Source: Promethearchaeota archaeon
Lineage (GTDB): Archaea > Asgardarchaeota > Lokiarchaeia > Sigyniarchaeales > SOKP01
DNA: 12,689 bases
NCBI GenBank assembly: GCA_048941265.1
Contig: JBHLNT010000118.1
Span: 1-12,689, forward strand
Direction of reading: 5' to 3'
Shown here: in pieces, positions 1 through 10,172 of the stretch
Numbering within the stretch: position 1 is the first letter of the stretch
Layout: every line of letters begins with the position of its first letter
The notes under the pieces: model-generated
Told to the model about the DNA's origin: nothing
Database searches by the model: none
Seen by the model: the letters and a program-made list of their open reading frames with translations, nothing else
Program-made: the position numbers and the translations under genes

Positions 1-1957
1 AGAATGGTAAAAGAGATATGTTAAATCGCTTAAAATTTCCTATTTTAGCAAAAATTTCAAACACAGATGCTCTAACAGAACTCGTTGGGTCTTTAATTAG
101 GGATTTAAGTCTAATAATTATATCAGAATTAAATTCTCCAATTTCCATATTTTTTAAGTTTTTAATTGCCGCAGCTCGTATTTCTCTATTAGAATGGCTT
201 ATTTTATTATTAATTAAATCAAGAGGTATTTTTTCAGAAGATTTAGCTAAAATATTTAGAGCTTCAACCTGTACTTGACTATCCGGATCGTTTACCAATT
301 TATTTAGATTTATTTTTGATATTAATCTAACGTTATTTTCAATCAACCTTGATAAAATCTTTAGTCCAACTAACTTTAATCTCCATTCTGAATCTTCAAT
401 TAAATCAAAAATTTCACGTTCTGGTAATTTCTTAATTAGAGTTAAGTTTGCTAAGACTAGTGATTGGGCAAAAGCCAAACTTTTGTCATAATTTGGAGAT
501 TTTAAAGATTCAATTATCCAAGGCAAAACGATATTTGGAGCGTCCTTTTCTAATTGGAGTAGTATTTTATAACAGATTTTTTTTGAATTGGGGTTAGGAT
601 CACATATCCCATCAATCAAAGTATTTTTATATTTCATATCGTTAAGATTTAGGTCTGCTTTTAGAGGTATTCTTTCATACATTAAGGTTAAAGTTTCTTC
701 AGCATATTTTCTTAATTTCTGGTTTTCACTTTTTATAAAATTGAATAGAGGGACCGGATCAAAAGTCTGCCCACATTCAGTTATAAGGGAATATTTGAGA
801 TTGGTGATAAATTCATTTCTTTTTGATAGAAAATAATAACTTGTAATTGAAATTAGAATAATTTCTTCTATTGCTGCAGTCCACGCAAATAATAAATAAT
901 TAGGAACTATTGAGTTTGTATAATTTGAAGCTACTAAAGTTTCCGATATTTTATCAACATTAACAATTAAAAAGTTAACAAATACATTTATACCTACAGC
1001 AGCCATTAAATATGCTGCGAAATAGATGTCAATACCCCGATATTTAATCATTCTGTTCCAAAAACGCGAGAAAAAACCAATAATTCCCATTGCAAGTGCC
1101 ACAAATACAAAACCGGCATAAGAATAAGTAGAAATTAATAAGGTTCCTGAAAAAAAGTAGGCTATCGTTTGAAACATAGATATCCAGGCCCATACAAACA
1201 CAAAGATCATTAATCCTAAAAGTATTCTTGGGGCAGGATCATTTAGAAATTCTTTCAGAGTTCTTTTGCTATCTTCAAAACCAAGAAATAAGGATCTTCT
1301 CATATTAGGTATATGGTAATATACATTAGTTATTCCCGCAATATATCCTTTGGAACCATAAAAAGTTAATATTAACAATGGATAAACGAGCATCCATGTA
1401 ATCCAAATCAATAGAAACGGTAAACCAATCAAAGAGAGAATGAGTGGTGGAAAAAAGAAAACTCCTAGAAAAAAACTCAGGGCAAAAATTACCCGCATTA
1501 ATTTATTGGTTGATTTATTGATAATTTTATCCCCTATAAATTTATGAAAGGGAGTTAATCCCTCATCTGATTCATCACTTAACGCTATAAATAAAAAATC
1601 AATTAAGGGATAGAATGAGATATACGCTAAACATATAATAAAAGGGATTAGAAAAAAATAAGGGTGAATTTTTGGAGGTTCAGTTTCACTAGTTTTCCAG
1701 AATTCTGGAGTTTTTATTGCGAAAATAAAAGCCATTGCTACCACAATCATTACGGCTAAGCTAAAAATTAAGCCAAAAACAATACATTGAAGTCTATCTT
1801 TAAGTTTAAACTCCCCTTTTAACACCAATGCGACTTGAGTATAAATCAATAACGTACCTATAATTAAAACAATAAAAAAAATAATTAGTAAAGCTATTGA
1901 AGCTCCATTTCCAAATGAAACCTCTGATAAGTTAGCTTGTAATATCAAGACTTTCAC
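1..1957 (-). CDS. Polytopic membrane protein (N-terminal ~380 aa) fused to C-terminal HEAT repeats; 3' end runs off the window
   Basis: Not in the ORF track because there is no stop in the window. Hand translation from GTG 1957 (or TTG 1948, MILQANLSEVSFG) was open in every segment I checked, and the same frame is open at position 1. There are many hydrophobic stretches (SIALLIIFFIVLIIGTLLIY, CIVFGLIFSLAVMIVVAMAFIFAI, ILSLIGLPFLLIWITWMLVYPLLILTFY). These are followed by HEAT-like units (LIEDSEWRLKLVGLKILSRL, LVNDPDSQVQVEALNILAK, LIKDPTSSVRASVFEIFAKI). Confidence 0.85.
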   Translation of the reverse strand, partial: MKVLILQANLSEVSFGNGASIALLIIFFIVLIIGTLLIYTQVALVLKGEFKLKDRLQCIVFGLIFSLAVMIVVAMAFIFAIKTPEFWKTSETEPPKIHPYFFLIPFIICLAYISFYPLIDFLFIALSDESDEGLTPFHKFIGDKIINKSTNKLMRVIFALSFFLGVFFFPPLILSLIGLPFLLIWITWMLVYPLLILTFYGSKGYIAGITNVYYHIPNMRRSLFLGFEDSKRTLKEFLNDPAPRILLGLMIFVFVWAWISMFQTIAYFFSGTLLISTYSYAGFVFVALAMGIIGFFSRFWNRMIKYRGIDIYFAAYLMAAVGINVFVNFLIVNVDKISETLVASNYTNSIVPNYLLFAWTAAIEEIILISITSYYFLSKRNEFITNLKYSLITECGQTFDPVPLFNFIKSENQKLRKYAEETLTLMYERIPLKADLNLNDMKYKNTLIDGICDPNPNSKKICYKILLQLEKDAPNIVLPWIIESLKSPNYDKSLAFAQSLVLANLTLIKKLPEREIFDLIEDSEWRLKLVGLKILSRLIENNVRLISKINLNKLVNDPDSQVQVEALNILAKSSEKIPLDLINNKISHSNREIRAAAIKNLKNMEIGEFNSDIIIRLKSLIKDPTSSVRASVFEIFAKIGNFKRFNISLLPF

Positions 1958-2066: not shown

Positions 2067-2639
2067 TTGAATAAAATCGAAGATGATTTTCTTGAATCAT
2101 TACAAAGAATTAATATTGTATTTAGGAATGAAGATATTTATGTAGAATGTATAAAAAATCACCCTGGTTTTTCAATTTTAGGAGAAAAATTAGGGCCATT
2201 TGAGAAAGGAAAAAAGTATAAGTTAAAATTCTTTTTAGTTGTTCCATTTATTAAAAACAATATATTAAAGGTAACATCTGAAAGCAAATGTGATAACGTG
2301 GATTTACAACGCTATGCTATAGAAGAAAGGGATGATCAAAAACTTATACAACGAGAGAATGAATATTTTTTAAATAAGATAAAGGAATTCCATCTTTTTT
2401 TAGAAAAGGATGTAATAGAAAATAATAAGCCTCAAAAATTTTTAGATGATTACAAATCTTACCATACTAGTGTTTTAGATTCTCGATTGTTAAAAATAAT
2501 GAGAATGGCTAAAAGTGATTTATCTGTAGAGGTTGAAAAGAGACTGGCGGCTTCTGAGCATCTTTTATATAACAATATTAATAAGATCGTTAATATCTGG
2601 AGAGAATTTTTTCTAAATTTAACTAGAATTAAAGAATAA
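2067..2639 (+). CDS. DNA replication GINS complex subunit, Gins23 (Psf2/Psf3-like, B-A domain order)
   Basis: 190 aa. The N-terminal beta domain pattern (VECIKNHPGFSILGEKLGPFEKGKKYKL) is followed by a helical domain with EERDDQKL, SRLLKIMRMA and LAASEHLLYNNINKIVNIWRE. This matches the archaeal Gins23 layout as recalled; no search was run. Confidence 0.75.
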   Translation: MNKIEDDFLESLQRINIVFRNEDIYVECIKNHPGFSILGEKLGPFEKGKKYKLKFFLVVPFIKNNILKVTSESKCDNVDLQRYAIEERDDQKLIQRENEYFLNKIKEFHLFLEKDVIENNKPQKFLDDYKSYHTSVLDSRLLKIMRMAKSDLSVEVEKRLAASEHLLYNNINKIVNIWREFFLNLTRIKE

Positions 2640-3475: not shown

Positions 3476-3994
3476 TTAGTCCTTTAGCGTTAGATACTCT
3501 CGTCTTGCTTTAGCATATTCCTCTCCACTAATATTTCCCGCTAGAAATTGTTTTTCTTTTTCTCGCATGATAGTTCTTTTCTTAGCAAGTTCTTTTCTCT
3601 TTTCTGCCTTTTGAAAATTATTTGATATCGATTCAGCAAGTTTTACTATATCCTTATTATTATTTTTACTTAATTTTTCCAAATAAGGTTTTATTGGCCT
3701 TGCCATCTCTATATTCTTCTTAGAAAGGTCTTCAATTCGTTGGAGAGCGAAAATTATTTCATCTTGATCATCACCCTCTAATACAGAGATTAATCGTGGA
3801 ATAGCTATATCCTTAAGGATTTCATCCAGATATTCTGATATTTCCTTTTCTACTTTATTATCTCCATATGTACCGAGCTGTTTATCCCTAATATATTCAA
3901 TAAACACAAGAGGTAATTCCACAGGCCAATCTTGCATTTTTTCCTTATTAATTAACTGAACTATACCACCGTCTTTTTTATGGAATATTCTCAT
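3476..3994 (-). CDS. Hypothetical protein (172 aa) with HEAT-like repeats and a C-terminal SHOCT-like motif
   Basis: Start moved from TTG 4015 to ATG 3994, which has AGGAGGT 6 nt upstream. HEAT-like segment AIPRLISVLEGDDQDEIIFALQRIEDL...PYLEKLSKNNNKDIVKLAESI; the C-terminus FLAGNISGEEYAKARREYL resembles SHOCT. Confidence 0.8.
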   Translation of the reverse strand: MRIFHKKDGGIVQLINKEKMQDWPVELPLVFIEYIRDKQLGTYGDNKVEKEISEYLDEILKDIAIPRLISVLEGDDQDEIIFALQRIEDLSKKNIEMARPIKPYLEKLSKNNNKDIVKLAESISNNFQKAEKRKELAKKRTIMREKEKQFLAGNISGEEYAKARREYLTLKD

Positions 3995-4000
3995 CCAATA

Positions 4001-4007
4001 ACCTCCT
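4001..4007 (-). promoter_or_regulatory. Shine-Dalgarno site (AGGAGGT) overlapping the top6A stop codon
   Basis: The minus strand reads ...ATA TAG GAGGT TATTGG ATG, so a strong SD lies 6 nt before ATG 3994. Confidence 0.75.
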
Positions 4008-5193
4008 ATATCCAATCCCCAGTTGATAATTTCTCTGGGATATATTGTTCGGTTAAAAATTCAAATCCGTGGGTGGAAAATGCCTGAATTTCAGCTTTTA
4101 CTTTTAATTTAAGAGCGAGATTTAGATCATCACGCCATTCCTTATTTTGCTTTACAAAATCTTCATTAAGCATATCTTTCGTTCTTTTGATATCTACTTT
4201 AGTCATGGGTAGTCTTACTTCATTTGGAATATTATATGCATCTAAATCTCTTGTCAGCACTCCTAATAGCTTTATGTTCGGCGTAGCAAGAAAAGGAGAT
4301 TCATAACTCAATCTTTTCGACCCTCGTAGATAAATTGAATGAATATAATGCCCATAAGGATCGCTATCAACTAAACTGAAAACGGGAAGATTTAATTCCT
4401 TAGTTAATCGCTTAAGAAACATCCTTACAGCAACATTTCCCACACCCTGAGCTGTTAGCAAGATACAGGGATACTTCCGCCAAAATCTTGCTTCTGCTAA
4501 TCTCATCATAGCCGCATCTTTTTCAATTACCAAAATAAATTCTGCATCTGATTCTAATATTTCAATATTATCAAGCATAGGCGAAATAGTCCACCCTCCA
4601 CTGCCTAATCCCTCAAGATCGATAATATCATTTCTATCTCTAATTCTAAGCCTTCCAACACAAGAACCTTTTGGTGCCGCAACTATGTGAGTAGCATTTC
4701 TTGTCGTATATAACATTGTGGCAACGTCTTCGATGCTTTTATCACTATTTTTCTGATCTCCAAAAAGTTTTACATCAGTATAGAAAATCTCACGCTTTGT
4801 AGCATGAATATCTTTAACTAACAGTTCATCAACAATTTCGAGTATTCTCATAAGCCTAGTCATGTCAGCTACACTGGTAAGGGAATGAAATTGTTTTTCC
4901 ATAATCTGTCTTCCGAGTAATAATAAGTCATTTTCCTCATCCCATATAATGTTTGAACTCGATCTAGATGGTAATTCTATGGTAGGTCTACCACTTGCAT
5001 AAATTTTTGCTATTACATTATCGATAAGTTCGTAGATTCTGTTTAATGTTTCCTTTTTGTTTAAATCATCAATTTTTATAGTATCTTCTGGAAGTGTAAT
5101 ATCTTTTTTTTCAGTTCTTTTTTCTAAATACTCTTGGAGTAGACTTTTTGTTGCTTTAAAATCCCAATTTTGACTTGTTTTCTTTTTAGCCAT
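4006..5193 (-). CDS. top6A: DNA topoisomerase VI subunit A (Spo11 family)
   Basis: Catalytic Tyr motif TKREIFYTD, TOPRIM motifs VIEKDA and DSDPYG, and C-terminal KAEIQA. ATG 5193 (MAKKK, 395 aa, 11 nt after the top6B stop) is preferred to the track's TTG 5223, which overlaps top6B. Confidence 0.96.
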   Translation of the reverse strand: MAKKKTSQNWDFKATKSLLQEYLEKRTEKKDITLPEDTIKIDDLNKKETLNRIYELIDNVIAKIYASGRPTIELPSRSSSNIIWDEENDLLLLGRQIMEKQFHSLTSVADMTRLMRILEIVDELLVKDIHATKREIFYTDVKLFGDQKNSDKSIEDVATMLYTTRNATHIVAAPKGSCVGRLRIRDRNDIIDLEGLGSGGWTISPMLDNIEILESDAEFILVIEKDAAMMRLAEARFWRKYPCILLTAQGVGNVAVRMFLKRLTKELNLPVFSLVDSDPYGHYIHSIYLRGSKRLSYESPFLATPNIKLLGVLTRDLDAYNIPNEVRLPMTKVDIKRTKDMLNEDFVKQNKEWRDDLNLALKLKVKAEIQAFSTHGFEFLTEQYIPEKLSTGDWI

Positions 5194-5204
5194 AATATAA
5201 ACAC

Positions 5205-8200
5205 TTAATTCTTTAATTTCCAATGTTTTTTACCCATTTTAACATCAACCATAACTTTTCCTTTCCGTTCTAGTTCTTTTAATTTGATCTGTAAAAATCT
5301 TGCATCCATCATATCTTTAATGCGTAATTTAAAAATTAGATGTTTTATAGTTTGCCATTCATCTGTCAAAGCATCTATCAAGCTCTCAGTGGTTATTACT
5401 GGTAAATGGGTTTGTATTGGTTTAGGAGGTTTAACAGAAGGTTTAGGTCTGGGAGGTGCCTCCCTTTTTGTAGCTTGCATTCGGGCCTTAGCAGTTTTTA
5501 GTTTTTCAGGTTCAAGAGGTTTAATTTCTGCTATTTTAATTTTTTCAGGTTTCTTCTCTTCTTCAAATTCTTTTTTCACTCCCTTAAGTTCATCCTGAAT
5601 TCTCCTAATTATCTCTTTTTTATTTATTTTAGACGGAAGTTCGATATCTTTTTCTTTACAATATACCCTCAATTCTTTCACAGTCCATTGATTGAAAGAA
5701 TCAACATCGGGCATTTCCTTTTTGGTAATAATTTCTTCTATAATTGTTAAATCTTTAGTAGGTGGCTTTTCTTCTACTTTAACTTCTTTCTTTTCTACTT
5801 TTTCCTCTTTTACTTCTAACTTCTCCTCATGTAGTTCAATAACTTTTGCTCCAACTTTTTTTGCTATTGGTTCTTGGATAACACTAGGAACAACTTTACC
5901 TCCAATCGCTTCTTTCATTAAATTTTGGAGTTCATTCTCATCAATCTGATTTTTATATTTCCCATCTCCTCGAGAAGCAATATTATATACACTTTTAACG
6001 AATTTTGGAATATATTTTTCAATTAAACTTGCTCGTTTTTCACTTTTACGTAGAGTTGCTTTTCGGTTAAGGTAAACCCTCAATCTGCGTCCAATTGCTT
6101 CAAGACAAAATTTAATTTCTCTTATTAAACCTTCATCATCTGCTAAAGCATTCTTAGATTGAGATTTAAACATTAAATGAACAAAAGGCCCTGAAACATT
6201 AACCAATAATCTTATTGGTCCTTTAGGTAAATTATTATCATAAGTATCTAATTTATAATTTTTCCAATTAACTGATTGAACTGCCTTAGTTATAGCACAA
6301 TCTGCACTATCTCTTAATTTAGGAGTTCTATTCACAAATCGAGATAAGACATCTCTAGATCGTTTTGGTACTTCAATCCGGTTTGAATATGCCATAACTG
6401 CTTCCACAACATAAGCTAGCCCTTTTCCACTTGTAGGAGGTCTTGTTTCAGCTGAAATAAAATCATCCTCTTTGGTATAACTTTCTAAAAAGTACTCGAA
6501 TACCGTACTATAACTCTCAGCAGTTTCCTCTGTATCTTCTTCTATAATATGGCCTATACTTTGTTTTACTTGATCTAAATCCAAACTCTCTTCTTTAATA
6601 TCGATGTTCTTTAAAATCTGAGTGCTAATATCGATAACTTCTTCTGAATCAACAGAAACGCTATTTAAAATTTCTTCAGAAGCATGTGAATCTTCTTGTA
6701 ATATTAAGGTTTTTTTATCATTCAGCAAAATATCAACTGTTTTACTAACTTCTTCGCTTGGTGTATCAAAATCATCCAAACTCTCTGAGACTCGTAAGCC
6801 TAAATCTTTGATTAAAGTATTTTCCAAGACGTTATCTCCTACTGGAATCGCAGTGTCTGTTGGTGGCGCCATATACTTAATTGATTTAAAAGCAAGAAAC
6901 AATGAATTAAATTGATCATTTGTTAGTTCTGCTGGTTTTACTTTGGCTAATTGGACTTGGTTAATTAAATCCTCGAATTCATTTCTATTTTTTAATTTCT
7001 TTAATTCGGTTAAACCATCTTGGTTATTTTTCAATAATTTATCGAAGTTTTCTTTAAGTTTATCCTTTTCTTTCCTAATTTCATCTACATCATCTAATAA
7101 TTTCTTTATCTCACCTTGAATTGATTTTTCGTCTTTTTTTGTCTCAACTTTATCTAATTGGTCATAATATTTTTTTATTTTTCGATTAATTTTTTCTCTA
7201 TTTTTGATTAATTGATTATATTTTGAAATTAAATCCCAATACTTGGATTTTAAATCATCAGATACGACCTCATAAACTATTAATTTATCTCGGGGTTTTT
7301 GAGACCTCCCATAGACTCTCTGTTCATAACGAATGAAATGAAAGGGATCACTTTTTTTTTCTGGAATGTTGGCAAATCCTGTACTAAGTATAAGAAGTTT
7401 AATTTTATCTTGCAAATCTCTTTCAGCTAAATCAATAATTTCTTTAGCTGTTTTAGAACTTACTCTAACAAAGTTATCTTTTAAAAATGAATTAATTGTA
7501 AGGTTTTCTGTTTTGATTAATAAATCTTGAAGGTCACCGATATTAGTCGAAGATGGATGAGGTAATGCATATTTAGGTTCTAAGGGAAATGAAGATACTT
7601 TTCTTGGATATATATGTTCTTCATTATAGGGATCAATGTAAATAATAGTGATGTGGGGATTCATTAAAGCTGTTTCTTTTATATAAGTGTCAACATAACC
7701 TCTAATATATTTCACATTTAGATAATGTAATTTTATATAAGTCCCATGAAGAAATGGGCAATCAACATCAGTAGGATTAATAAAATATTTTTTTTCATTT
7801 TTGGAAGTAGTAGAGAATTCTGAAACTGTGGCATACACATTATCTAATGATTTTGAGACTGCAACAATTGGTTTACCAGTTGTATTTTGCGAATCGCTGA
7901 ATGCACTAGGTGCTCCGAAACCCTGAGAACCCCGTGTTTGTTTTAATTGAGTGCTTTTACTGGAAGCGAGATATCTCCCAAATTTTCTTAAATCTACTTT
8001 TGACATCCCAGTCCCATTATCAAAAATTTCGAAAGTATAACTCATTACGTTCTTTTGACTTAATTCCAAGGTTAAAAAGGAAGCTGCTTCGGTTTCACTT
8101 ATGCGCATTATTACAATGGGTTCATCATCAATAATAGATTCTACAGGTTTAATAATTTCTTCCATATCGACAATAATTTTTATTACTTCCTCCTCTATCT

Positions 8201-8655
8201 CGAGTTCAGATTTATCAGTTATTTCTCCAGATTTTGCTAGTTCAGCTTCTTCTTCTAACTGAACTTCTAAATTTTCAGATTCATTAGGTTCTAGACCAAA
8301 TTCTTTCATTAAAGTATGTTTTGCCTCATCATCTAGAGGCTTAAATGTTGTCCCATTTTCAGTTTCTTTTTGGAGTATTGAGAGATTTTCTAGGGATAAT
8401 TCTTGGTCTAATGTGAACTTAAGTTTTGAATTTGGTTTTTTGATCTCTCCCCATTGAAAGGATTCAATAGCATCAAGCGCATTGTCTAAAAATTCGGCAA
8501 CATATTGTTTACACGGTTTTAGCTAATCTAAAAAATCCTGTATGCTTCCAGTAACCGAATTCGAATCCTACTAGCTGGGTTCGCTTACGCATAAATTCCG
8601 CTATTGTTCCTTGCTTAATAGTGGATTCGTCATCTCTAGAGGTAATTTTTACCAC
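5205..8655 (-). CDS. top6B: DNA topoisomerase VI subunit B, split gene: join(8655..8540, 8508..5205), predicted 1139 aa after removal of a 31-nt intron
   Basis: GHKL and transducer motifs in the long ORF: DNGTGM, QTRGSQGFG, HGT, ALMNPH, PHP, RFVNRTP, WKNY and FKSQSKNAL. The frame stays open for 66 codons upstream of the track's ATG 8309 and contains the N-box QYVAEFLDNALDAIE. The preceding conserved segment IAEFMRKRTQLVGF is in a different frame that starts at GTG 8655. Confidence 0.92.
8509..8539 (-). other. Putative 31-nt bulge-helix-bulge/loop (tRNA splicing endonuclease-type) mRNA intron in top6B
   Basis: RNA: AGGAUUUUUUAGAUUAGCUAAAACCGUGUAA. The central 4-bp helix is GCAU(8545-8542)/GUGU(8514-8511). 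The 5' bulge AC|A is closed by GG/CC, and the intron hairpin is UUUUAG/CUAAAA. The 3' site AA|A lies in an internal loop, which is closed by the exon-exon stem AAUUCGGUUAC/GUUGCCGAAUU. Excision gives CAT ACA CAA TAT (H-T-Q-Y) in frame. Confidence 0.8.
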
Positions 8656-8713
8656 TCTTTTTCGTAATTTTTTTCATTTTCTAAACATTAATGCTATCTA
8701 TATTATGTGCATT

Positions 8714-8725
8714 TTTATATATAAA
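8714..8725 (-). promoter_or_regulatory. Candidate TATA box for the top6B-top6A cluster
   Basis: Palindromic TTTATATATAAA about 60 nt upstream of GTG 8655. The AT-rich background weakens the call. Confidence 0.4.
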
Positions 8726-8844
8726 TAAGAAGATATTTTCTAAGAACTATAATTGTAACATACTCTCTAATATTTCTAAGTTCAAAATCCTTCTTTTACT
8801 TCAAATCTTAGAAAAACTGATTTATTATTTAAATTTTATCACCG

Positions 8845-8870
8845 AAAAAAAAGATTTAAAAGAAATAAAA
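8845..8870 (-). terminator. Candidate oligo-U terminator of coaBC
   Basis: The minus strand reads TTTTATTTCTTTTAAATCTTTTTTTT, 30-55 nt after the coaBC stop. U-tracts are the usual archaeal intrinsic terminator. Confidence 0.4.
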
Positions 8871-8900
8871 GTTAAATATTGCTTTTTACATATAATTTTA

Positions 8901-10172
8901 TCAGATACCCTTTATTCTGTAATTTTCTAAAGCAATATCTAAAATCCTTGAAGCTACATAACGCTTCGAATGTCTTTCGACATGAGTTATGTGTTTTTCT
9001 TTATCAATAATATATACTTCATTATCTTTGCTCACAAATCCAATATCATCCCTTCCTACATCATTAGCAATAATCAAATCTGCGTCAGAACGCTTAAGAC
9101 GGTCATAGGCTCGATCAATTAATTGACTTCTTGAAACGTTTGTTTCTGCTTTAAAGGCTACAATAAATACCTTATGATTCTTTTTCCTAGCCTCATCGAT
9201 AATCTTCGGAGTGAGTCTCATATTGACTTGTAATGTTTTAACATTGTCAGATGATATTTTTCCCTCAATACATTCTGTCGGGGCATAATCACTTATCGCT
9301 GCAGCACATATGAAAAAATCATAATCTTTGTAGCCTAACTCATCTTTGATAGTTTTTATAAAATCATCTGTTGAGGTAACATTAATTGTATTTATATAAT
9401 CTGGGATCTTCACTAAGCAATTACCAGCTACTAGGACAACTTCTGCTCCTCTTGCTAATGCTTCCTTGGCAATTTCTATACCCATCCTTCCAGAAGAATT
9501 ATTTGAGACAAACCTAATTTCATCAATATATTCTCTTGTAGGTCCTGCAGTGATTAATACGCGTTTTCCTTCTAAATCTTTTTTCGAGATTATTAAATCA
9601 ATTACACGATCTATAATATCATCGATTTTGGCGATTTTAGCTTTTCCCTCTGAAATTCTAGGCCCTAAAATATCAACACCATATTTTTTTAGTTTCTTAA
9701 TGTTTTCATGAAATATTTGATGCTTCATCATACTTTCATGAGCAGCGGGTACTATTACAATTGGAATAGAAGAACCAAAGGCAGTTGAAACTACAGTAGT
9801 AACTGGAGTATCATCGACACCATTAGCTATTTTTGAGACCGTATTTGCGGTTGATGGACATACTAAAATTAAGTCTGCTTTTCCTAATTCTTTAGGACGC
9901 TCTCCCGCTAAATAAACATGTTCTACCGCACCTGTTAAATTAGTGATAACTGGATTTCCTGTAGCCCAGTGCATTAAGGCAGGAGTTATTAATTCAGTTG
10001 CAGCTTTACTCATTACCGCAATAACTTCAGCTCCAAGGCGCATTAATTCACGAGCCACAATTGGAGCAGATATAACCGCAACAGAACCAGTTAAACACAT
10101 ACATATTGTCTTTCCTCTAAGAATTCTTCCTTTACTCTCAATAATATCTTTGGATGGATGCTTATATGACAT
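8901..10172 (-). CDS. coaBC: Bifunctional phosphopantothenoylcysteine decarboxylase / phosphopantothenate-cysteine ligase
   Basis: N-terminal flavoprotein domain (LTGSVA, PSTANTVSKIANG, VPAAHESM). C-terminal CoaB domain (VLITAGPTREYIDEIRFVSNNSSGRMG, AAAISDY, FKAET, IIANDV). Confidence 0.96.
   Translation of the reverse strand: MSYKHPSKDIIESKGRILRGKTICMCLTGSVAVISAPIVARELMRLGAEVIAVMSKAATELITPALMHWATGNPVITNLTGAVEHVYLAGERPKELGKADLILVCPSTANTVSKIANGVDDTPVTTVVSTAFGSSIPIVIVPAAHESMMKHQIFHENIKKLKKYGVDILGPRISEGKAKIAKIDDIIDRVIDLIISKKDLEGKRVLITAGPTREYIDEIRFVSNNSSGRMGIEIAKEALARGAEVVLVAGNCLVKIPDYINTINVTSTDDFIKTIKDELGYKDYDFFICAAAISDYAPTECIEGKISSDNVKTLQVNMRLTPKIIDEARKKNHKVFIVAFKAETNVSRSQLIDRAYDRLKRSDADLIIANDVGRDDIGFVSKDNEVYIIDKEKHITHVERHSKRYVASRILDIALENYRIKGI

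Follow-up and report, generated by a model that had tools for sequence, protein, structure and literature searches.

A probable splicing-endonuclease intron of 31 nucleotides in the coding sequence of the topoisomerase VI subunit B gene of an Asgard archaeon

How does an archaeon make one protein from a gene that is broken into two reading frames by 31 nucleotides (nt)? We asked this of a 12,689-nt stretch of DNA (hereafter the window; contig JBHLNT010000118.1 of assembly GCA_048941265.1) from a genome that we call G000, in which top6B, the gene for subunit B of DNA topoisomerase VI (Topo VI), is interrupted near its 5' end. An initial annotation, made from the letters alone, had guessed at an Asgard host, and the host is indeed an Asgard archaeon (Promethearchaeota, Loki-type). 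It had also read the interruption as an intron that the archaeal splicing endonuclease (EndA) removes from the mRNA. Comparison supports this reading: related genomes, the register of the splicing motif, selection on both exons and the presence of EndA and RtcB genes all fit, and from them we infer the splicing itself. We consider it very probable that positions 8539..8509 of the minus strand are an archaeal splicing-endonuclease intron in the coding sequence of a single top6B gene.

The two frames of top6B are joined by deletion of the insert. The first frame opens on the minus strand at GTG 8655-8653 and has 48 codons before its stop, TAA 8511-8509; the encoded peptide ends ...GYWKHTGFFRLAKTV. 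Its GTG start and peptide are kept in relatives. The second is open from just after TAG 8525-8523 (first codon at 8522) to the stop at 5207-5205, a length of 1105 codons, and begins LKPCKQYVAEFLDNALDAIE. The frames are offset by +1 and overlap by a few codons (8522-8509), and deletion of 31 nt (8539..8509) joins them. On re-reading the sequence, we found the frames, stops, coordinates, peptides and 31-nt joining of the initial annotation to be correct throughout. With the insert removed, exon 1 (8540..8655, minus strand) runs from the GTG to the first two bases (AC) of a split Thr codon, and exon 2 (5205..8508, minus strand) continues with the third base of that codon and then QYVAEFLDNALDA..., which holds the N-box of the Bergerat fold. 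Translation of an unspliced mRNA would stop after 48 residues and would give no functional Top6B.

The interrupted gene is top6B, and it is the only copy found in the genome. The exon-2 frame matched the Pfam families Topo-VIb_trans (PF09239, E 6e-29) and HATPase_c_3 (PF13589, E 1e-5). Against NCBIfam NF003218, which has a cut-off of 274 bits, the protein scored 287.5 bits, and the score was 298.6 bits in a search of the genome. The gene has the features of DNA topoisomerase VI subunit B: a Bergerat-fold ATPase with its N-box, a transducer domain, and a score above the curated cut-off. A family search of the whole genome (5.0 Mb in 361 contigs, 91% complete) found top6B in single copy. The one other match (E 4e-5), on a different contig, was far below the NF003218 cut-off, and a second intact top6B, which the initial annotation had said would count against its reading, was not found by this search. 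The intron-less allele of the nearest relative aligned without a gap over the junction to two solved Top6B chains, 1mx0_A (residues 13-51) and 2q2e_B (residues 14-54), and the gapless eight-residue spacing that the initial annotation had given for Sulfolobus Top6B holds. The N-terminal stretches are weak when taken alone (i-Evalue of 350 for 1mx0_A and 14 for 2q2e_B), but they are parts of whole-protein matches of E 6e-24 and 3e-39. The 138-aa N-terminus alone had no match among solved structures at E <=0.01, and an 800-aa query did match.

We also observed that the protein, at 38 + 1105 codons, is roughly double the usual length (470-620 in the solved chains), with large insertions. Residues 946-987 of the exon-2 frame, close to the C-terminus, have a weak SAP-like match (PF18953, E 0.007).

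The insert is present in DNA sequence data. Logan contigs of two public runs crossed it without a gap. A 550-nt contig of run X1 spans 8300-8568 with 0 differences and 0 gaps, and a 1505-nt contig of run X2 spans 8300-8760, also with 0 gaps but with 1 difference. The two runs come from a single study that is possibly the source of the assembly (run X3, from a second study, has no coverage of the insert), so the independent support for the insert comes from ten other assemblies with diverged homologous inserts at the same site. The two runs also contain contigs of co-occurring relatives. In X1, one such contig has an intron-less junction with a loose end at 8539 (window 8539-8573, depth 25.6); in X2, another has a 29-nt insert of the type found in genus g2, with a loose end at 8540 (window 8540-8582, depth 68). 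Because contigs of both junction types are found in the same sediment runs, intron-bearing and intron-less strains co-occur. An assembly or sequencing artefact might be suspected in a metagenome-assembled genome that is fragmented into 361 contigs, but the gapless crossings in two runs, the g2-type insert on the relative's contig and the inserts in ten other assemblies indicate that the insert is almost certainly not an artefact.

Relatives of G000 have either a continuous junction or an insert at the same codon. Among 29 related loci with the exon-1 motif, 27 were continuous and read ...GYWKH-X-QY-x-AEFLDNALDAIE, where X is T, S, V, A or Q. The other two, G000 and its congener G008, have 31-nt inserts at the same place that are 61% identical. 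We then used the continuous N-terminus of the nearest relative as the query in an order-wide search of 154 genomes, 139 of which had a match. The match split at query residues 39-41 in 11 genomes of one family and three genera: two of seven in g1 (G000 and G008), five of 41 in g2 (G113, G118, G135, G143 and G148), and four of seven in g3 (G149, G151, G152 and G153). The other listed rows, about 127 uninterrupted relatives, ran through the junction; G093 was uninformative because its contig ends there. A sample of the phylum (400 genomes, 258 with a match) contained no further split genome among the matches listed (126 rows unlisted). The comparison that the initial annotation had proposed thus came out in favor of its reading, in that most relatives are intron-less and ten other genomes have inserts at the same codon that vary in sequence and length. 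One member of the family, genome G013, has two full-length copies of top6B (contigs C29 and C91, open frames of 1186 and 1142 codons), both intron-less.

Excision of the insert restores the conserved protein in every interrupted allele. Measured from the His codon to CAATAY, the insert is 31 nt in four alleles, 29 nt in six and 32 nt in one. No length is a multiple of 3, and there are two different frame offsets among the 11 alleles. Excision restored the conserved WKH-(T/S)-QY junction in all 11, and it did so in a single register (NC|N, with the cut at the bar) that yields ACN or UCA, that is, Thr or Ser. At the residue of the split codon, the alleles that lack the intron encode T, S, V, A, Q or M. 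Like the intron of cbf5, the insert lies within a coding sequence and breaks its frame, and its removal restores colinearity with intron-less orthologues.

Purifying selection is strong on exon 1 in the first frame and on exon 2 in the second. For exon 1, pN/pS was 0.051 (27 codons, 55 pairs of the 11 intron-bearing alleles), and a comparison of G000 with G008 gave 9 synonymous changes and no non-synonymous ones. For exon 2, dN/dS was 0.085 between the same two intron-bearing g1 alleles (618 codons, pS 0.69), similar to the values of 0.06-0.15 in pairs involving intron-less alleles. The open frame of exon 2 spans 1050-1274 codons in all of the 11 alleles but that of G008, where the contig ends after 642 codons. 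The intron, at 61% identity between G000 and G008, is more conserved than synonymous sites. There is no sign of the relaxed selection that the initial annotation had listed among possible refutations. That both pieces are kept as coding in separate frames is understandable only if a joining step follows transcription or takes place in the course of translation.

These results also bear on whether top6B is decaying or N-terminally truncated, in which case the insert would be a disabling indel and the cell would have no Top6B or would make one from an internal start such as ATG 8309. Metagenome-assembled genomes do hold pseudogenes, and an open reading frame (ORF) annotated from the DNA as it stands would begin at ATG 8309. 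However, a protein from 8309 would lack the N-box (E..N) at about 8495-8470, and the low values of pN/pS and dN/dS are not those of a decaying gene. This is the only top6B in the genome, and the gene for its partner subunit is intact: top6A (4006..5223, minus strand; TOP6A-Spo11_Toprim, 8e-58; TP6A_N, 5e-18) is in the same operon and overlaps the end of top6B by 19 nt. The same-site insert is found in 11 genomes of three genera, with downstream frames of >1000 codons where the contig allows. We regard decay or truncation as highly improbable.

Joining during translation would require that the ribosome frameshift or hop over all or part of the insert, giving a Top6B with or without about 10 extra residues. 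There is a precedent in gene 60 of phage T4, which is itself a topoisomerase subunit gene and has a 50-nt bypass. In G000, the overlap of the two frames by a few codons would suit such recoding, as would an AAA codon in frame 1 (8519-8517) and the AAA before CAA in frame 2 (8510-8508), a possible take-off and landing pair. However, two different shifts would be required among the alleles (+1 where the insert is 31 nt long, +2 where it is 29 or 32 nt), and we saw no common slippery site or take-off and landing pair when G000 and G008 were read by eye. Recoding like that of gene 60 would be expected to have a single shift direction and a slippery site or matched codons. The peptides encoded by the inserts are unconserved (GFFRLAKTV and a stop, versus GFTRSTVPVQ..., versus SRFYRHPKPV...), whereas RNA pairing is conserved with compensatory changes. 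Finally, the extra residues would fall five codons before the catalytic Glu, where the solved Top6B chains and about 127 relatives are gapless. Recoding is therefore very unlikely.

The RNA around the insert can form a motif of the kind cut by EndA. The exon-1 strand of a central 4-bp helix, Ha (GCAU, 8542..8545, minus strand), is followed by the 5' bulge A8541 C8540 | A8539. The intron strand, Hb (GUGU, 8511..8514, minus strand), is followed by the 3' bulge A8510 A8509 | A8508. The four pairs in G000 are G.U, C-G, A-U and U.G. A script confirmed this helix and the position of the cuts two nt 3' of each strand (AC|A and AA|A), both as first annotated; a 4-bp central helix ending two nt before the cuts is one of the features expected of an EndA-type intron. 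Between the two strands lies the intron hairpin h' (8515..8538, minus strand), in which GG 8538-8537 pairs with CC 8516-8515 and UU 8535-8534 with AA 8519-8518, with a mismatch at A8536/A8517. In its upper stem (minus strand), UAG 8530-8528 pairs with CUA 8522-8520 around a loop at 8527-8523. U8533-8531 are unpaired in the scheme that we counted, and a longer upper stem of 6 bp (8533-8528 with 8522-8517) is a possible alternative. The 31-nt insert (8509..8539, minus strand), a probable mini-intron of the bulge-helix-bulge (BHB) type on the evidence of sequence, relatives and DNA contigs, runs from the third nt of the 5' bulge through the hairpin and the central helix's 3' strand to the first two nt of the 3' bulge.

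The motif occurs in the same register in all 11 alleles. We scored four cut offsets that keep the frame, using the EndA rule that a 4-nt helix strand ends two nt 5' of each cut. One offset, with NC|N at the 5' site, was best in all 11 alleles, with four of four central pairs in seven and three of four in the four g3 alleles. None of the remaining three offsets gave four pairs in any allele. The intron helix h' next to the bulge had 2-6 contiguous pairs in every allele, where a flanking helix needs at least two. Among 75,654 arbitrary boundary pairs in the window, 0.40% had four central pairs with an h' of at least two, and 2.5% had at least three central pairs with such an h'. We conclude that the presence of a splicing motif at the insert is more than chance.

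The motif belongs to the class HBh' (bulge-helix-loop-like) and not to hBHBh'. In all 11 alleles, H and h' flank the 5' bulge, and the full hBHBh' arrangement is not present. The initial annotation had named the element a bulge-helix-bulge/loop intron; the "bulge/loop" wording allowed for HBh', which is the class that we find, and the full two-bulge motif is not borne out.

The 3' splice site lies in a loop that is closed by an outer helix between the exons. Its exon-1 strand (8551..8562, minus strand; GAAUUCGGUUAC, codons E-F-G-Y) is 5 nt upstream of Ha, and its exon-2 strand is at 8490..8501 (minus strand; GUUGCCGAAUUU, codons V-A-E-F). In G000, 11 of the 12 pairs form. The mean number of pairs was 10.5 in intron-bearing alleles (n=11) and 8.4 in intron-less alleles (n=28), in which the helix also occurs, in a weaker form, because GAATTC is self-complementary. 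The outer helix is largely a by-product of the codons that is somewhat stronger where there is an intron, at most a weak hint of selection. An exon-exon helix of this kind (9-12 bp) may have predisposed the site to hold an intron.

Pairing within the intron is maintained by compensatory changes. We used a MAFFT alignment of the 11 alleles and a structure derived from the same sequences. The structure was paired in 89.8% of cells, compared to 22-43% when partners were slid. There were double changes in seven pairs, a number that was reached in 8 of 500 shuffles, and the covariation score of 0.238 was reached in none of 500. Compensatory double changes were found in four of five lower-stem pairs and one of three upper-stem pairs of the hairpin. 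In the central helix, 90.9% of cells were paired: the C-G and A-U pairs are invariant and the other two vary on one side only, with the outer pair G.U or G-C in seven alleles and mismatched in four. The initial annotation had named a covarying 4-bp helix as possible support. In this helix the variation goes no further than G-C/G.U, and the compensatory double changes are in the intron hairpin instead. RNAalifold recovered the hairpin and the outer helix unaided.

Several observations weigh against splicing by EndA. A search of public sequencing runs found no RNA run that contains the locus, and neither a spliced junction nor a circular intron was seen. The motif is incomplete, in that an exon helix (h) next to the 3' bulge had 0 pairs in all 11 alleles. 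Two of the four central pairs in G000 are G.U, only three of four form in the four g3 alleles, and the central helix has no compensatory double change. The control with slid partners favored the tested structure, which came from the same alleles, and the 11 alleles are related and so are not 11 independent trials. RNAalifold missed the central helix and paired columns 29-58 and 30-57 instead, the minimum free energy (MFE) fold of the single sequence uses UACA/UGUA in place of the central helix, and the fold energy of the 61-nt region was no better than that of shuffles (z -0.34). BHB motifs are often not the minimum-energy fold.

Two alternative helices were considered as splicing motifs and rejected. 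The helix UACA/UGUA of the MFE fold would excise 29 nt from G000 and leave the frame unrestored, and its second pair (A-U) is available in only four alleles (U, column 59). In the g3 alleles, another register (CAUA/UGUG or CAUA/UAUG) gives four pairs, but the excised length would leave the frame broken.

The insert could instead be removed from the RNA by another nuclease and ligase, or by a ribozyme-like reaction, that recognizes the hairpin. The absence of a canonical bulge at the 3' site and the mismatched central helix in four alleles would be in keeping with this, and the most conserved feature is the hairpin with CAG/CUG and not the central helix. However, the inserts (29-32 nt) are far too small for group I or group II introns, and the register of the cuts, which is fixed by homology, coincides in all 11 alleles with the EndA rule. 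In addition, (alpha-beta)2 EndAs are described as cutting HBh' or bulge-helix-loop (BHL) motifs outside of tRNA, including that of the cbf5 pre-mRNA (PMC2738675, PMC5829648). We consider a different enzyme or a ribozyme-like reaction quite unlikely.

The genome encodes enzymes that could carry out EndA-dependent splicing. It has two paralogues with the endonuclease catalytic domain PF01974 (107 and 69 bits), at L052 1453-2058 (-) and L053 1219-1815 (+). The 201-aa alpha paralogue has 3p1z_B, a catalytic chain, as its best match (E 2e-37), in an alignment that spans the stretch with the Tyr, His and Lys motifs of the catalytic triad, and its Lys in ...NKPR... aligns with the Lys in DVEKPR of 3p1z_B, residue 44 by count. 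The 198-aa paralogue aligns best to 1a79_A. In place of the Tyr and His of the M. jannaschii enzyme, which we take to be the catalytic residues, it has Phe and Ser. [quoted passage not shown] RtcB is also encoded (569 bits), and the host would therefore have RtcB together with a splicing endonuclease predicted to cut relaxed motifs. According to PMC5829648, the K44 Lys of the specificity loop is key to a broad substrate range, only (alpha-beta)2 and epsilon2 EndAs cut non-canonical introns, Asgard archaea have an (alpha-beta)2 EndA with an L1 loop, and an HBh' intron is processed even by a loop-less (alpha-beta)2 EndA.

The tRNA genes of this host also appear to be rich in introns. Aragorn recognized only 12 tRNA genes in the 5.0 Mb of G000 (91% complete), and nine of these have introns; most of the tRNA genes are probably too interrupted to be recognized. 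A preprint (bioRxiv 10.64898/2026.10.13.758758) found that 44 of 60 Asgard genomes have two EndA paralogues; it also describes tRNA genes as heavily interrupted, and it counts HBh' among the canonical motif classes.

We propose the following course of splicing. In the pre-mRNA, GCAU at the end of exon 1 and GUGU close to the intron's 3' end would together make the 4-bp central helix, and the intron would fold its own hairpin directly beside it. The 5' splice site would then be in a 3-nt bulge (AC|A), and the 3' site (AA|A) in the internal loop closed by the exon-exon helix. An (alpha-beta)2 EndA would cut two nt 3' of each helix strand, and RtcB would ligate the exons and probably circularize the intron. 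The product would have a rebuilt Thr codon (AC+A) and read ...WKH-T-QY..., five codons before the catalytic Glu of the ATPase.

The intron has changed state repeatedly within one family. By a quick maximum-likelihood method, we made a tree from the N-terminal halves of 61 Top6B sequences (330 columns) that included all 8 from g1, all 7 from g3, 35 from g2 (the 5 intron-bearing and 30 of the 36 intron-less) and 1-2 from each of eight other genera, with most of g11, g6 and g8 excluded. There were 8 changes of the intron label on this tree, of which at least 7 are forced by well-supported branches. The four intron-bearing g3 alleles form one clade (SH-aLRT 97), and the nearest relative of G000, G001, is intron-less (98). 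The intron sequences follow the tree of the host gene, as far as 30 nt can show. The simplest explanation of this history is that the intron was gained long ago and then repeatedly lost in a precise manner, as has been proposed for cbf5 (PMC2738675). The intron may instead have spread laterally to the same site. A blastn-short search against the whole of G000 found no other intron copy: apart from the locus itself, the matches were of low complexity and at most 19 nt long. Pfam searches found no homing endonuclease among the neighboring genes.

The neighboring genes include, with top6A, coaBC and genes for a RimK/LysX-type ligase, an amino-acid kinase, an M20 peptidase and a HEAT-repeat protein. 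The last of these (window 2-1957, minus strand) encodes at least 652 residues with C-terminal HEAT repeats and runs off the window. Three ORFs had no Pfam match: two downstream beyond top6A, at 2067-2639 (plus strand, 190 aa) and 3476-4015 (minus strand, 179 aa), and a short one immediately upstream of top6B at 8691-8930.

How does this intron compare with known systems? A BHB intron in the pre-mRNA of cbf5, which encodes a pseudouridine synthase, was reportedly described by Watanabe in 2002. The cbf5 intron of Crenarchaeota (Desulfurococcales and Sulfolobales) and that of top6B are both short, lie within the coding sequence, and must be removed for the protein to be made. According to Yokobori 2009 (PMC2738675) for cbf5, the two also share an often relaxed cleavage motif, a host with an (alpha-beta)2 heterotetrameric EndA, and a patchy distribution, with precise intron-less alleles in close relatives that are read as lineage-specific loss. 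They differ in the host gene and in the phylum (Asgard, not Thermoproteota), and their sequences are unrelated. Whereas splicing of cbf5 was shown experimentally, we infer that of top6B. The number of state changes also differs, with at least seven within one family for top6B, on a quick tree, versus two losses reported for cbf5 (PMC2738675). We conclude that top6B is a new host gene for an intron of the cbf5 kind: the kind is the same, the intron is different.

Other systems resemble the top6B intron in part. The BHB intron of HVO_1309 in Haloferax volcanii is likewise an EndA substrate in an mRNA, neither tRNA nor rRNA, but it is in the 5' untranslated region (UTR), interrupts no frame, and is in a host with another type of EndA, as described in Schwarz 2020 (PMC7714728). 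The HBh' or BHL introns of tRNA (PMC5829648; bioRxiv 10.64898/2026.10.13.758758), which are cut by (alpha-beta)2 and epsilon2 EndAs, share the geometry of the top6B motif, with a 4-bp central helix, a 3-nt bulge bounded by h', and cuts two nt 3'. The top6B intron is within the size range of tRNA introns, but its substrate is an mRNA with no tRNA body, and the exon half of the motif consists of Lys and His codons. In eukaryotes, the HAC1 and XBP1 mRNAs undergo unconventional cytoplasmic splicing, with cleavage by Ire1 and ligation by RtcB or Trl1. As we propose for top6B, these mRNAs have a small intron that changes the frame and is removed with no spliceosome and with a tRNA ligase, and splicing decides which protein is made. 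They differ in that the nuclease, Ire1, recognizes two stem-loops and not a BHB motif, and in that splicing is regulated.

In our literature search, from which supplementary files were excluded, we found no report of an intron in an archaeal top6B. The supplements of one preprint (bioRxiv 10.64898/2026.10.13.758758) could hold non-tRNA intervening sequences. As of 2020, according to PMC7714728, no BHB intron had been reported in archaeal mRNAs other than that of cbf5 and the 5'-UTR case. The top6B intron adds a second gene to the printed cases in coding sequence, which so far are those of cbf5 only.

What might the intron mean for these archaea? Topo VI is an essential DNA-topology enzyme, and Top6B is a homologue of the subunit that partners Spo11 in eukaryotes. 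Asgard archaea are the closest known relatives of eukaryotes. It is conceivable, although we think it unlikely, that this is an old intron from near the base of this Asgard family that some lineages have kept as a switch, with Topo VI made only when EndA and RtcB capacity allows. If this were true, the RtcB-dependent unconventional splicing of HAC1 and XBP1 would have a prokaryotic counterpart among the archaea closest to eukaryotes. Gene callers would report top6B as truncated or split, and surveys of Asgard topoisomerases and counts of pseudogenes would be wrong at this locus. It is likewise conceivable, but unlikely, that top6B is just the example that shows, and that further protein genes of Asgard archaea are spliced by an endonuclease and missed by gene callers. 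The eleven diverged alleles and the many precise intron-less alleles provide a natural series for the recognition of an intron and for its gain and loss. Given the heavily interrupted tRNA genes, our results suggest that the broad-specificity splicing machinery of these Asgard archaea reaches into their mRNAs.

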